Source: Ostreococcus lucimarinus (taxonomy: Eukaryota). From it: a DNA stretch of 64,000 nt. Within the stretch, counting starts at the first letter, position 1, and each line of letters begins with the position of its first letter. The notes under the pieces are model-generated. The model saw nothing but the letters and a program-made list of their open reading frames with translations. It did no database searches and was not told where the DNA came from. The stretch lies in NCBI GenBank assembly GCA_000092065.1, contig CP000600.1, one strand, 5' to 3'. Position numbers and translations under genes: made by a program. This document shows, one piece after another, positions 34,185 through 37,559 of this stretch.

Positions 34185-36770
34185 TTACAAGGGTAAAGAA
34201 CCGTCACCGGAGGTCAAAGCGGAGACGAATCGAGAGGCGTCGACGATGGGCACGGCGAGATCGCGCGCCTTGGCGAGCTTGGATGGACCGGCGCCGACGC
34301 CGGCGACGACGAGGGCGGTTTTGCGGGAGAGCGTCGAGGCGACGTCGCCGCCGGCGGCGCGGATGAGGTCGTGGACGTCGTCGCGGGAGAAGCCGTCGAT
34401 GGTGCCGGTGAAGAGGATTTTCATGCCACGGAGATCGGCGGTGGGCTCGGGAGATGGGACCGTCGGCGATGGGGTGGGCGACACAGACGACGACGACGCG
34501 GGTTCGGCGAATCGCGGAGACGGTTGATTCTTTGATGACGACGCGTCGGCGTCGAGGACGACGACGCCCGTGGCGATGATTTCATCCACGATGAACGCGT
34601 TGCCGGGCTCGCCCCAAAAGTCGACCAAAGATTGCGCGAGGACGGGACCGACCCCGTCGACGTGCGTCAACGCGGCGTGCGCTAAACTCGCCGGACCGCC
34701 CTTGGCGGCGGCGAGGGCGGCTTTTTTGAACGCGGCCAAACTCCCATAGTGCGTCGCGAGGACTTTTGCGGTGTGTGCGCCGATATTCGGAATGCCGAGA
34801 GCGTAGATGAATCGGTGCAAAGGCACGCCCTGGCGTCGCACTTCGATGGCTTGGAACAACTTGACAGCGCTCTGTTTCAAGCCGTCGGAACCATGTTTGA
34901 TCTCACCCTTGGAGTTTTTCACACCGGCGTATCGCCACCACGTCGGAACGGCGTCACCGCTATCCGGACCGAATCTTCGCTCGAGTGTGAAGATGTCAGC
35001 TGGCGTCTTTACCACACCTTCGCGATGCAGCGTCTCGAGCGTGCCGCGCGCCAACCCGCGAATATCCAGCGCGTCTCTCGCGCAAAAGTGCAACAGGCGT
35101 TCCATCGATTGCGAAGGACACTTCAAGCCACCAGTGCATCGCACGATAGAGCCCATCGCGGTTTTCGACGCCGAAAGAGGCGCGCGCACGACGGATGATC
35201 CGCAATCTGGGCACTTGGACGGAGGGAGCCATTCTGGGAGCGGCTTGATGTCTTCGGCGTACGCCGAAGCCTCGGCGAGATCATCACCAGCGAGCGAGAC
35301 GACGCGGGGAATGACATCGCCCGCGCGTTCAACGGTGACTTGTGCGCCCACCTTGAGATGTTTACGAGCGATTTCATCAAAGTTGTGCAATGTCGCCCGC
35401 GAGATGGATGCGCCGCCGATGTCGACGGGATCGAGCAACGCCACGGGCGTCAGCGCGCCCGTGCGCCCGACCTGAATTTCGATGGCGCGAAGCGTCGTCA
35501 CGGCGCTCATCGCTGTGAATTTATGCGCTATCGCCCATCGAGGTTGCCTCGCATCCGCGCCGAGCGCGGTTTGAAGTTCGACCGAGTTGACCTTGTACAC
35601 GACGCCGTCTATCTCGTACGGCATCGTCGGGCGAGCTATTTCTAAAGCATCGTACGCCTCGATGAGCTCGCCGATGGTTTTCGCCACGCCTAAAAATGGT
35701 ACGGCGTCAAAGCCTTGCGCTGGCAAGAACGCACTCAAGAACTCGCTCTGCGTCCGCCACGGAGCGTTTGTCTCCTCGTTTGACGCGCCGACGGCGCCCC
35801 AACCGTACGCCAAAAAACGCAACGGCATTTGATTATCGTCGACGACGAGCGTTCGCATCGCTCCCGCCGCGGCGTTCCGAGCGTTTTTGAAGACGCGCAA
35901 ACCAGTCGCCGCGCGCTCGGCGTTCACTCGTTGAAAATCTTCATCGGCCACGTGCACTTCGCCGCGAATCTCCAACACCGCCGGGTACGGCTCCGCCAAC
36001 TTCATCGGCACGCCCCGAGCGCCGATGAGGTGTCGCGTGACGTCTTCTCCCATCTCACCGTCCCCTCTCGACACCGCGTACACCAACTCACCGTTCTCGT
36101 ATCGCAAGCTCGCGGAGGCGCCGTCGACTTTCGGCTCGGCGCAATATTCAATCGCCGTCGTCGTCGCGGCCTCGCCCTCCGTCTCCCCTCTCAACTTCTC
36201 AACGCGCTTCATGAACGCCTCCACCTGCCCCACGTCGAACGCATTCCCCAACGACCGCATCGGAACCGCGTGCGCGATCTTTTCCAGCCCACTCGCTCCG
36301 TCCGGCGTCGCCCCCACGCGCGCGCGAGCGCCGCCCGCCTTCGCCGCCGTCGGATGCGCCGCCGCGATCGCATCGTACCTCGCCCGCATCCCATCGTACT
36401 CCGAATCGCTTATCACCGGTTCCGCGTCGTTGTAATACTTTCCATCGTGCATCGCGAGCTCGGCGTCCAATCGAGCCAACTCGCGCGCCGCCTCGCTCGC
36501 GCTCAACCGCTCGACGCCGTTCGCCGCGAACCCGCGCGTCGTCCCTCGTCCGCTCGCGCTCGCGCCTCCGTCCCCTCCCCGCGCGCGCCGCGCCTCTCCA
36601 TCGTCCACGTCATCGCTTCGCGCGTCACCGATCGCGCGCGCGCGCGCGCCGGCGCGGTAACGCGCGCGTCTCGTTCGAATCGAATCGGCGCGCGGCGTCC
36701 CGAGTTCGCGTCGCTCGCACCGCGCGCGCGCCGCCGGGACCGCGCTCGCCGCGCGCGCGCCCGCCGGCAT
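34185..36770 (-). CDS. ligA: NAD+-dependent DNA ligase (bacterial LigA type) with BRCT domain and organellar presequence
   Basis: Ia domain (LARLDAELAMHDGKYY..ISDSEYD). Adenylation KxDG (CAEPKVDGAS). RGDGEMGEDVT. Cys4 zinc finger (CPDCGS..CTGGLKCP). HhH region. C-terminal BRCT (MKILFTGTIDGFSRDDVHDLIRAAGG). ORF 34185..37433 was trimmed to MPAGARAASAVPAARA; the alternative Met MRRRALGASVA lies about 60 nt upstream. Confidence 0.8.
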   Translation of the reverse strand: MPAGARAASAVPAARARCERRELGTPRADSIRTRRARYRAGARARAIGDARSDDVDDGEARRARGGDGGASASGRGTTRGFAANGVERLSASEAARELARLDAELAMHDGKYYNDAEPVISDSEYDGMRARYDAIAAAHPTAAKAGGARARVGATPDGASGLEKIAHAVPMRSLGNAFDVGQVEAFMKRVEKLRGETEGEAATTTAIEYCAEPKVDGASASLRYENGELVYAVSRGDGEMGEDVTRHLIGARGVPMKLAEPYPAVLEIRGEVHVADEDFQRVNAERAATGLRVFKNARNAAAGAMRTLVVDDNQMPLRFLAYGWGAVGASNEETNAPWRTQSEFLSAFLPAQGFDAVPFLGVAKTIGELIEAYDALEIARPTMPYEIDGVVYKVNSVELQTALGADARQPRWAIAHKFTAMSAVTTLRAIEIQVGRTGALTPVALLDPVDIGGASISRATLHNFDEIARKHLKVGAQVTVERAGDVIPRVVSLAGDDLAEASAYAEDIKPLPEWLPPSKCPDCGSSVVRAPLSASKTAMGSIVRCTGGLKCPSQSMERLLHFCARDALDIRGLARGTLETLHREGVVKTPADIFTLERRFGPDSGDAVPTWWRYAGVKNSKGEIKHGSDGLKQSAVKLFQAIEVRRQGVPLHRFIYALGIPNIGAHTAKVLATHYGSLAAFKKAALAAAKGGPASLAHAALTHVDGVGPVLAQSLVDFWGEPGNAFIVDEIIATGVVVLDADASSSKNQPSPRFAEPASSSSVSPTPSPTVPSPEPTADLRGMKILFTGTIDGFSRDDVHDLIRAAGGDVASTLSRKTALVVAGVGAGPSKLAKARDLAVPIVDASRFVSALTSGDGSLPL

Positions 36771-37058
36771 CGCGCGCCACGCCTCGATCGCGCGCGCGAC
36801 GCTCGCGCCGAGCGCGCGTCGTCGCATGCACGACGCGAAGTGCCGCACTCGATGCCGCGCGACGTCGCGTCGTCGGCGTCGTCGCGCGCCGCGGCGAAGA
36901 ACCGCGCCAAGCGCAAGCGCGCGAGGCTGCCGCCGCCGCCCGCCGCGCGCGCGGACGCCCGGGATGACGACGCGCGCGCGGACGAGAGCGGCGAGGATGA
37001 CGACGCGGTCGTCGCGCGCGCGGGCGCGTTCGGACGATACGGCGCCGCCGACGGCGCG

Positions 37059-37559
37059 ATGTCGCGCGCGGACGACGAGTGGGCGACGAGCGAGCGCACG
37101 TGGGCGTCGCTGTTCGGCGTGCTCGAGCGGAACGGGTACGCGAAGAAGAAATTGTGGGCGCCGTTCGTGTACGACGGCGACGCGGGACGGCGGATGCGAA
37201 GCGCGGGATTCGAACGCGTGGTGCACAGACGGGCGGATTTCTTTGAACGCGTGCGAGACGGCGTGTTCGTGCGGTCGCTGGATGCGGTGGTGGATAATCC
37301 GCCGTACACGGGGAAAGGGATGAAGGAACGGATATTGAAGGCGCTGCGAGACGCGGAGGTGCCGTTTTGTTTGTTGCTGCCGCTGGGAGTGTTGCACGCG
37401 GCGTTCGTGAGGGACATTCTGGAGGAGACGCACGTGCAGGTGATCGTGCCGAGGAAGTGTTACGTGTTCAAGAAGGGAGGGACGGAGGTGCCGTTTAAGT
37501 TTTTGTGCTGGTTGTGCTATAAGATGGAGCTGAAGCGCGACTTGTACTTCATAGACTGA
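37059..37559 (+). CDS. Short ORF with DNPPY amino-methyltransferase motif IV (truncated or atypical N6-adenine/N4-cytosine or HemK-like MTase)
   Basis: VRSLDAVVDNPPYTGKG resembles motif IV of beta-class DNA amino-MTases preceded by GDA...; no FxGxG SAM motif in about 166 aa. The ORF frame extends upstream to a Met near 36850 (MPRDVASS). Divergent from ligA. Confidence 0.4.
   Translation: MSRADDEWATSERTWASLFGVLERNGYAKKKLWAPFVYDGDAGRRMRSAGFERVVHRRADFFERVRDGVFVRSLDAVVDNPPYTGKGMKERILKALRDAEVPFCLLLPLGVLHAAFVRDILEETHVQVIVPRKCYVFKKGGTEVPFKFLCWLCYKMELKRDLYFID

Follow-up and report, generated by a model that had tools for sequence, protein, structure and literature searches.

A complete gene for a probable minimal DNA adenine methyltransferase in the picoalga Ostreococcus lucimarinus

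The gene and its encoded domain

We analysed a 64,000-nucleotide (nt) stretch of Ostreococcus lucimarinus DNA (NCBI GenBank assembly GCA_000092065.1, contig CP000600.1), called the window below, which judged from its sequence is nuclear DNA of strain CCE9901. The subject is a short gene on the + strand, head to head with a DNA ligase gene (LigA), whose product is a small methyltransferase (MTase) carrying the amino-MTase motif DNPPY. The gene was found to be real, complete and under purifying selection, and its product has an MTase fold. The reading frame ends with a stop codon at 37557-37559 and contains two in-frame ATGs, one at 36852 (235 amino acids, aa) and one at 37059 (166 aa). The product read from ATG 37059 matches a public O. 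lucimarinus CCE9901 protein (P0003, 166 aa, "predicted protein" at NCBI) at 100 % identity, and the 235-aa translation is 99 % identical to the homologue P0001 (235 aa). Because two blocks N-terminal of Met70, a KNRxRRKR basic cluster and V-x-R-x-G-A-Y-G-S-Y-G, are conserved among other Mamiellophyceae, the 235-aa model with ATG 36852 was preferred, and the public 166-aa model is probably short by 69 residues at its N-terminus. The gene has no introns, and its protein is 166-235 aa long. The region has a GC content of 66 %, and for this reason the + frame stays open upstream to 35829 (576 codons).

The original prediction, made from the letters of the window alone, had placed an open reading frame (ORF) with an amino-MTase motif at 36771-37559, divergent to LigA. 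The motif IV is genuine, lies in a real gene divergent to LigA and is conserved across homologues: DAVVDNPPYTGKG corresponds to residues 144-156 (37281-37319), with D-N-P-P-Y at 37293-37307. The end of the predicted span (37559) was correct, but its start was not, since the gene begins at 36852 and 36771 falls inside the LigA coding sequence (CDS). About 85 aa had been said to follow the motif, in agreement with the 83 residues past Tyr152, and it was also right that there is no literal FxGxG; the sole GxG of the MTase is in TGKG directly after NPPY. The features of the gene are as follows.

36852-37559, + strand: complete CDS of the mini-MTase, 235 aa plus stop, supported by the translation and by homologues P0001 and P0003
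36852-37058, + strand: N-terminal extension of 69 aa, low complexity, 81 % GC, predicted disordered, absent in viral/phage-type homologues
36897-36926, + strand: basic cluster KNRAKRKRAR, residues 16-25, KNRxRRKRxR in Mamiellophyceae, a putative nuclear localization signal
37023-37043, + strand: GAFGRYG motif, residues 58-64, family consensus GAYGSYG, conserved in Mamiellophyceae before Met70
37059-37556, + strand: 166-aa catalytic core, which by itself makes up a Rossmann-like MTase domain
37071-37124, + strand: motif X-like helix DDEWATSERTWASLFGVL, residues 74-91, Thr invariant and D-E-W nearly so, helix predicted at 81-93
37146-37187, + strand: motif I equivalent KKLWAPFVYDGDAG, residues 99-112, strand beta1, loop and start of helix A
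37212-37244, + strand: single strand plus H...DFF, residues 121-131, strand predicted at 122-124 (53-55 in core numbering)
37281-37319, + strand: motif IV DAVVDNPPYTGKG, residues 144-156, after strand 145-148, the best-aligned segment with M.EcoRI
37359-37397, + strand: strand beta5 and loop VPFCLLLPLGVLH, residues 170-182, strand predicted at 172-177, mostly invariant in Mamiellophyceae
37434-37556, + strand: C-terminal strands from VQVIVPRK through FLCWLCYKMELKRDLYFID, residues 195-235, which close the sheet, with a beta-hairpin at 203-215 (DSSP)

One related assembly differs at the N-terminus. In L088 (3001-3741), the closest related assembly with 94 % identity, the N-terminal extension of homologue P0002 is shifted to the +1 frame compared with the window. 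L088 also has frame breaks in LigA. These frame changes are most likely assembly indel errors, not biology. An alternative start taken from the odd P0002/L088 N-terminus was therefore rejected, the frame change being in an assembly that has LigA frameshifts too.

AlphaFold2 prediction of the core alone gave a mean pLDDT (predicted local distance difference test) of 92.0 and a predicted template modelling score of 0.88. In the full-length model the core again had pLDDT > 90, whereas residues 1-9 and 30-73 were < 50. Foldseek comparison against the PDB returned class I S-adenosylmethionine (SAM)-dependent MTases with a probability of 0.99-1.0 (MnmM, TrmM, METTL5, a type I M subunit and PrmC), which meant that the fold is that of an MTase and not the non-MTase fold that the original prediction had allowed for. 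The model shows a beta-sheet with alternating helices that can be superimposed on solved class I MTases, as in the class I Rossmann fold. The sheet is not the canonical seven-stranded one; DSSP on both models found one strand only between strand 1 and the strand before DNPPY. On these models the fold is a reduced version of class I. Among the viral structure models of BFVD, the named matches were mostly phage "methyltransferase" or "DNA N-6-adenine-methyltransferase", and the best small matches (169-183 aa), with target TM-scores up to 0.62, were unnamed or uncharacterised proteins.

The motifs were then located on the models and on alignments of homologues. In weak alignments, the DEWxT helix at the start of the core is collinear with QYYTP (type I M subunit) and with SDEFYTQ (M.EcoRI). 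After it comes the motif I equivalent, with a strand at 100-102, the loop A-P-F-V-Y-D-G-D and helix A at 111-118. Its consensus is K-K-x-W-x-P-F-Y/V-Y-D-G-x-A-G. Mamiellophyceae hardly vary at the W, P, F, Y and D, and no member of the family varies at the Phe; the same non-canonical loop is present in the phage/viral homologues. The next segment, H...DFF, is likely the equivalent of motif II/III, whose roles the conserved His or the DFF may have taken over; in HemK and MJ0882 a D/E-F ahead of NPPY aligns with it. Its H125 (H56 in core numbering) is invariant in the 14-sequence Mamiellophyceae alignment and nearly invariant in the 23-sequence one, where F131 is fully conserved and D129 and F130 almost fully. 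In the models DFF is followed by two short helices, the strand A-V-V-D (145-148) and N-P-P-Y, so that DNPPY (residues 148-152) stands right after strand 4, as motif IV should. P-F...P within the beta5 segment is invariant family-wide, and Q, P, W and C are conserved in the C-terminal strands.

This arrangement changes two statements of the original prediction. It had reported that no SAM-binding motif I was present, but the conserved residues 99-112 take the place of motif I as a strand-loop-helix upstream of DNPPY, and would bind SAM there. It had also read a GDA block as in beta-class enzymes; the GDA block is itself the positional equivalent of motif I, it comes before DNPPY, and no glycine-rich motif follows in the protein or in the + frames downstream. 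Because the motif I equivalent is upstream of motif IV, the order is gamma-like (X-like helix, I-like, DFF, IV) and not beta.

Conservation, relatives and distribution

A search of 5.8 billion proteins recovered 74 homologues with E-values (E) from 1e-152 to 1.8e-15, on contigs up to 2.2 Mb, and a profile search of 1.84 billion cluster representatives extended this to 1235 proteins at E <= 1e-3, 262 of them at E <= 1e-10. In the alignment of 23 homologues, P-Y-T-G-K is invariant and D-N-P nearly so, and F-C-L-L, P177, G179, H182 and R187 are invariant or nearly so. Among distant relatives, down to 28 % identity, the N and the second Pro of NPP are invariant, the first Pro is nearly invariant, and Tyr or Phe comes next. 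The ratio of non-synonymous to synonymous substitution rates (dN/dS, Nei-Gojobori) of the core against three Ostreococcus orthologues was 0.15, 0.20 and 0.19, while that of the N-terminal extension was 0.27-0.62, which means weaker constraint than on the core. At third codon positions the core has a GC content of 0.84 and the two flanking genes 0.67-0.74; the MTase does not fall below its neighbours and has no low-GC foreign signature. Expression of the family is shown by homologues from transcriptomes (EukProt and MMETSP entries). A second MTase copy was looked for in the 64-kb window, and none was found.

Completeness was judged from the C-terminus. Many relatives are free-standing proteins of 158-172 aa that align to the Ostreococcus core from the first to the last conserved residue, and the C-terminus of the O. 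lucimarinus MTase coincides with the C-termini of all homologues. This match, together with a core that folds alone (pLDDT 92), speaks against the unrecognised downstream exon that had been suggested in the original prediction. Only 52 nt lie between the MTase stop and that of the convergent gene (1310 aa), and none of the + frames downstream of the MTase encodes a peptide like motif I; a hidden exon is thus excluded.

Membership in known families was examined with Pfam, NCBIfam, PHROGs and PADLOC. In the Pfam and NCBIfam scans the 235-aa protein had a single match, to the PrmC model TIGR03534; it was confined to residues 116-169 and scored 12.5 bits (E 0.073), where the cut-off is 199.1. PF05869, with a gathering threshold of 28.1 bits, did not match the O. 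lucimarinus protein, and MT-A70 (PF05063) had no Pfam match in the O. lucimarinus protein or in any of the 23 family members. By these Pfam/NCBIfam scores, memberships in HemK/PrmC, T1-type Dam and MT-A70 were rejected. PDB sequence searches with the single protein and two family profiles returned insignificant matches only. The PHROGs profile phrog_799, "DNA methyltransferase", matched the core with E 1.3e-7 (32.2 bits; positions 210-343 of the 458 in the profile), and 15 of the 23 family members match it as well (best P0041, E 1.8e-14); PHROGs has no curated cut-off, and the function of phrog_799 is an annotation only.

Against PF13651 (EcoRI_methylase, gathering threshold 26.4 bits) the O. 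lucimarinus protein gave nothing at E <= 10, while many small viral-type relatives carry the PF13651 assignment, for example P0152 (31.8 bits), P0219 (30.5 bits) and P0226 (26.5 bits), over only about profile positions 112-186 of 345. The small relatives also match PADLOC MTase_II. Comparison of the family with M.EcoRI by hhalign gave a probability of 94.8 % and E 4.9e-8 over motifs III-V, the M.EcoRI query being a sequence validated solely by its full-length PF13651 match of 435.9 bits. The O. lucimarinus protein is thus a distant minimal relative of M.EcoRI, grouped with phage/viral mini MTases, and by the Pfam rule it is not a PF13651 member. M.EcoRI is a gamma-class N6-adenine DNA MTase (PF13651) acting on GAATTC. 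In a relaxed alignment its SDEFYT, VVYCN, GDF, IVVTNPPFS and KKFLIIAN are collinear with the family, and motif I is atypical in both. M.EcoRI (326 aa) has about 60 aa inserted between motifs I and III and a C-terminal half of about 140 aa, and neither is present in the Ostreococcus protein, whose C-terminus aligns at about residue 250 of M.EcoRI, and the PF13651 architecture of about 325 aa is not present.

The closest known proteins of the same size are the phage mini MTases of phrog_799, which include phiYS40 gp029 (YP_874042, 169 aa), proteins of Prochlorococcus phages P-SSM2, P-SSM5 and P-TIM68 and of Campylobacter phages, and proteins on 16-29-kb IMG/VR contigs. With phiYS40 gp029 the domain and length are the same, and core residues 5-164 of 166 can be aligned (BLASTP E 3e-9, hhalign 98.4 %). 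The shared pattern is D-E/D-W/F/Y-x-T, W-x-P-F, DFF, NPP(Y/F), PF.LL.P and a C-terminal W/F-x-C-Y-K. The differences are that identity is just 27-35 %, that the eukaryote-type proteins form a separate group, and that the Ostreococcus protein has the 69-aa basic extension and a DNPPYTGKG signature. The phage mini MTases are themselves uncharacterised, and their name "DNA methyltransferase" is an annotation. A side observation concerns the label of phiYS40 gp029 (L096, 2965-3474), which is "sugar-phospahte nucleotidyltransferase" (sic) in GenBank and "DNA methyltransferase" in RefSeq; given the NPPF MTase homology, the GenBank label looks wrong.

Other small MTases were compared in the same way. 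Phage T1/HP1 Dam (PF05869, about 170-200 aa) is also a very small N6-adenine MTase, which has W/Y-x-T-P in its N-terminal helix, carries (D/N)PPY and has a motif I other than FxGxG; it is described as active on GATC although without a separate recognition domain. One relative only, P0109, has a weak PF05869 match over nearly its whole length, at 14.3 bits against the required 28.1; T1/HP1 Dam is a different family of the same broad group. METTL5/TRMT112 (m6A1832 of 18S ribosomal RNA), TrmN6/TrmM, Mtq2/HEMK2 and KsgA/Erm are likewise small, single-domain enzymes without a recognition domain, with an NPP(F/Y)-type motif after strand 4. Unlike the Ostreococcus protein, with its one strand between motifs I and IV, they have a GxGxG motif I and seven strands including 2 and 3, and no significant sequence similarity to them was found (10-15 % identity in structural alignments). 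MT-A70 enzymes are unrelated, with a DPPW motif and another topology in place of the DNPPY found here. Iyer, Zhang and Aravind (2015, PMC4738411) catalogued thirteen clades of eukaryotic N6-adenine MTases. Their Group 2 (M.EcoKI/M.TaqI-like) contains the Chlamydomonas CHLREDRAFT_205675 clade and a clade of Emiliania that they call "derived from a bacteriophage version". The present family resembles Group 2 in the N-terminal helix before the core, in the degenerate region around strand 3 and in being a phage/bacterial MTase domain acquired by microbial eukaryotes, with a member in the haptophyte Prymnesium. By their descriptions it is set apart from both clades, the first being often CCCH/KH-fused and the second restricted to Emiliania.

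Eukaryote-type members beyond Mamiellophyceae were found in Amoebophrya sp. A120 (a Syndiniales parasite), in a Norrisiella transcriptome (MMETSP), in Prymnesium polylepis and among many transcriptome/metagenome proteins, and most of them have a basic N-terminal extension. K/R clusters like KNRAKRKRAR are seen in the extensions of, for example, P0075, P0076, P0080 and P0081. A Gly/aromatic motif stands 10-25 residues before the core, as GAYGSYG in Mamiellophyceae and HG(P/S)HF in other eukaryote-type members, and is absent in viral/phage proteins. A neighbour-joining tree of 147 core columns, made without bootstrap, placed the eukaryote type apart from the virus/phage type, and the mean identity of the Mamiellophyceae proteins was 49 % to other eukaryotes and 33 % to the viral type.

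Two further architectures were noted among the relatives. Five proteins (P0111 from Amoebophrya sp. A120, P0110, P0117, P0128 and P0094) share an extra N-terminal domain of about 100 aa, with the approximate pattern D-x-L-L-K-A-x-L-L-x-G-x-L...D-Y-F-x-I...P-R...G-V-x-L-E-Q-R-Y-R-x-F, for which the precomputed table held no family assignment. The metagenomic protein P0107 (372 aa) is a tandem MTase duplication, the first copy having SNPPFS and the second TNLPFS, a degenerate catalytic motif, which is reminiscent of a pseudo-heterodimer with one active and one inactive half.

Proteins of the viral type are numerous. Patterns derived from P0219 recovered 245 confirmed relatives from IMG/VR on contigs up to about 29 kb, and 80 of the 245 loci were kept (L008-L087), beside the loci L001 and L023. 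The contigs are virus-like and come from aquatic metagenomes, and some are binned with giant-virus metagenome-assembled genomes. In the two viral contexts examined, a D5-like primase-helicase (D5_N / PriCT-2 / DUF5906) adjoins the MTase, and most neighbouring ORFs have no Pfam match. Phages of Thermus, Prochlorococcus, Campylobacter, Streptococcus and Flavobacterium carry the viral type too. These phage genomes were reached through the viral-type P0219, and tblastn with the core against 50,697 phage genomes gave no match. Scans of IMG/VR with the core and with the Mamiellophyceae alignment found no close eukaryote-type copy, the best relatives being 25-30 % identical. Because of this low identity, the MTase is not a recent viral insertion, and recent virus-host transfer in either direction was rejected.

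The genomic neighbourhood

The genes beside the MTase and the interval between the divergent starts are as follows.

34188-36827, - strand: LigA, NAD-dependent DNA ligase of bacterial type, carried by the nuclear genome of a eukaryote (Pfam)
36828-36851: gap of 24 nt between the divergent ATGs of LigA (36827, - strand) and the MTase (36852, + strand); 74 nt in L089
37612-41544, - strand: ORF of 1310 aa without Pfam match, convergent with the MTase

Pfam confirmed the identity of LigA by matches to the adenylation, OB, zinc-finger, HhH and BRCT domains of an NAD-dependent ligase. Its start at ATG 36827 is backed by an MRRRA N-terminus that is conserved with L089, and its - strand frame is open up to 37433. 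The LigA N-terminal extension of about 180 aa is Arg/Ala-rich and begins with the conserved MRRRA; it may plausibly be an organellar transit peptide. The original prediction had given the two genes a shared promoter of 290 bp or shorter. The divergent head-to-head arrangement holds, and the spacing is corrected to 24 nt between the ATGs, so the promoters or 5' ends of the two genes must interdigitate or overlap the adjacent CDS. The 1310-aa ORF has a coiled-coil look from E/K/A/L-rich heptad-like stretches, and its hydrophobic C-terminal segment VTFFIIVSVVLLFLTLTAMF suggests a tail anchor.

Three other Ostreococcus-like genomes (L006, L088 and L089) have the same succession of FtsH, LigA, MTase and coiled-coil gene, while in Micromonas-like and Bathycoccus-like loci (taxonomy inferred) the MTase has other neighbours. 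The adjacency to LigA is therefore genus-level synteny and not functional evidence, and a functional LigA-MTase link was rejected, as the head-to-head order is kept only within Ostreococcus.

Proposed activity, rival explanations and meaning

By analogy with (D/N)PP(Y/F) chemistry, the 166-aa core would bind SAM through the PF..DG loop and the DFF segment, and a flipped-out base, most likely adenine, would place its exocyclic amine in the DNPPY pocket and accept the methyl group. The disordered basic extension of 69 aa, which only eukaryotic members have, probably directs the MTase to the nucleus. As the MTase has no recognition domain, specificity would be low, or would come from a partner protein or from the N-terminal extension. 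We infer that the protein is catalytically active, binds SAM by way of its atypical motif I and is located in the nucleus, and we infer its substrate as follows. All significant sequence relationships are to DNA MTase families carried by phages and viruses with double-stranded DNA (dsDNA), and among eukaryotes the family has a patchy distribution; for these reasons a DNA target is favoured, and adenine-N6 of DNA appears the most likely one. On balance we think it probable, with considerable room for doubt, that this complete nuclear gene encodes a minimal SAM-dependent amino-MTase whose likely target is DNA adenine-N6.

Several points weigh against this assignment. The 235-aa protein reached no threshold in Pfam or NCBIfam. 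Its motif I is non-canonical, with one strand between I and IV, so that SAM binding is putative, and a target-recognition domain is absent. The expression evidence comes from the transcriptomes of homologues only, and we found no biochemical or genetic data on any family member in the literature. In Ostreococcus, N6-methyladenine (6mA) is present at ApT and enriched just downstream of transcription start sites, and its writer is given as the MT-A70 enzyme AMT1 (PMC12695648). The same attribution of 6mA at ApT to AMT1 is made for Ostreococcus and Micromonas together (PMC12695648), so no known DNA mark is left that requires the mini-MTase. A 2026 preprint on single-molecule real-time (SMRT) sequencing of O. 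tauri reports 2.8 % of adenines as modified (bioRxiv 10.64898/2026.07.10.737489).

The protein could instead be an N6-adenine or other exocyclic-amine MTase of a conserved nuclear or nucleolar RNA (ribosomal, small nuclear or transfer RNA), with the target chosen by folded RNA or by a partner, as in METTL5, KsgA/Dim1 and TrmN6. A small, single-domain enzyme without recognition domain would suit this role, and the basic N-terminal extension is equally compatible with the nucleolus. The strong conservation of the core (dN/dS 0.15-0.20) and the single copy within the 64-kb window point the same way, conservation of such kind having been seen as typical of RNA-modification enzymes (Iyer et al., PMC4738411). 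However, the significant relationships are all to DNA MTase families (phrog_799, PF13651/M.EcoRI and PADLOC MTase_II), dsDNA phages and virus-like contigs encode free-standing relatives, and the named members are confined to a few marine protist lineages (Mamiellophyceae, Syndiniales, chlorarachniophytes and haptophytes). No significant match to any RNA MTase family was obtained, Pfam MTS reaching E 0.014-0.05 in relatives only, and we regard an RNA target as a doubtful but still serious alternative. A HemK/Mtq2-type protein MTase, with a glutamine-N5 or lysine side chain in the NPPY pocket, is improbable. NPPY is the motif of HemK/PrmC/Mtq2 too, and the weak matches to TIGR03534 PrmC (E 0.073) and to HemK chains around NPPY fit such an enzyme, but the likeness to HemK is limited to about 30 residues around NPPY, the PrmC score of 12.5 bits compares with a cut-off of 199.1, and homology over the full length goes to phage/viral DNA MTase families.

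Loss of activity was weighed as well, the original prediction having proposed a degenerate remnant or a regulatory subunit lacking catalysis. The missing canonical FxGxG, the strand-helix unit apparently absent between motifs I and IV, and the absence of a recognition domain would all be expected of a catalytically dead remnant or of a non-catalytic regulatory or binding subunit, possibly the partner of another MTase, and in P0107 the second copy indeed has NLPF and not NPPF, like the active/inactive METTL3/METTL14. Yet NPP(Y/F), DF, PF and the Lys six residues past the motif are conserved from Ostreococcus to phage at 28 % identity, which is the pattern expected for an active site, and the non-canonical motif I is kept in free-standing phage/viral proteins that presumably have to be active to serve the virus. 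A core dN/dS of 0.15-0.20 with a conserved catalytic motif does not agree with a remnant, and a regulatory subunit seems unlikely with NPPY, DFF and PF..DG all conserved, so this explanation is judged very improbable. The suspicion that there is no gene at all, only a frame held open by high GC or an antisense shadow of the LigA N-terminal extension, derives from the 66 % GC and the long stop-free frames on both strands (576 codons on the + strand from 35829; the LigA frame to 37433). We give it practically no weight: the whole MTase CDS, and with it the core at 37059-37556, lies outside the LigA CDS with its start at 36827, the amino-acid sequence is conserved across genera and phyla with dN/dS well below 1, and the fold prediction is confident.

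If the DNA adenine MTase assignment is right, it could be carried one step further, to a second nuclear DNA methylation writer in eukaryotes that is independent of MT-A70, namely a phage-descended enzyme of 165 aa with no recognition domain, installing 6mA or N4-methylcytosine beyond the AMT1 sites. This enzyme would have been domesticated, under purifying selection, in Mamiellophyceae, and would be present in Syndiniales, chlorarachniophytes and haptophytes; its product may be a self-mark that shields host DNA from the nucleases of large algal DNA viruses. We regard this extension as speculative and rather unlikely.

The superfamily, its chemistry and phage-derived adenine MTases in protists are already known, and nothing points to an unusual mechanism. 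For the eukaryotic mini-MTase family we found no publication, and there is no Pfam model and no characterised member. The gene is thus a clean, testable candidate nucleic-acid MTase in a model picoalga. Ostreococcus tauri can be transformed by a polyethylene glycol-mediated method (Thomy et al. 2021, as cited in PMC12695648), and Nanopore and SMRT methylome data of O. tauri exist that could reveal a mark beyond the AMT1 sites (PMC12695648; bioRxiv 10.64898/2026.07.10.737489). If the target is RNA or protein, the value would be less, yet the family would still be a new eukaryotic modification enzyme family. It also offers a case study in minimal base-flipping amino-methylation, the domain having some 165 residues and a motif I that is not rich in glycine, and lacking both one strand of the canonical fold and a recognition domain. 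The enzymes that write 6mA in the DNA of eukaryotes are a subject of active debate, AMT1 being the accepted writer in Ostreococcus and Micromonas (PMC12695648), and on the assignment to DNA adenine the smallest free-living eukaryote and several marine protist lineages would keep a second adenine-type MTase under purifying selection.

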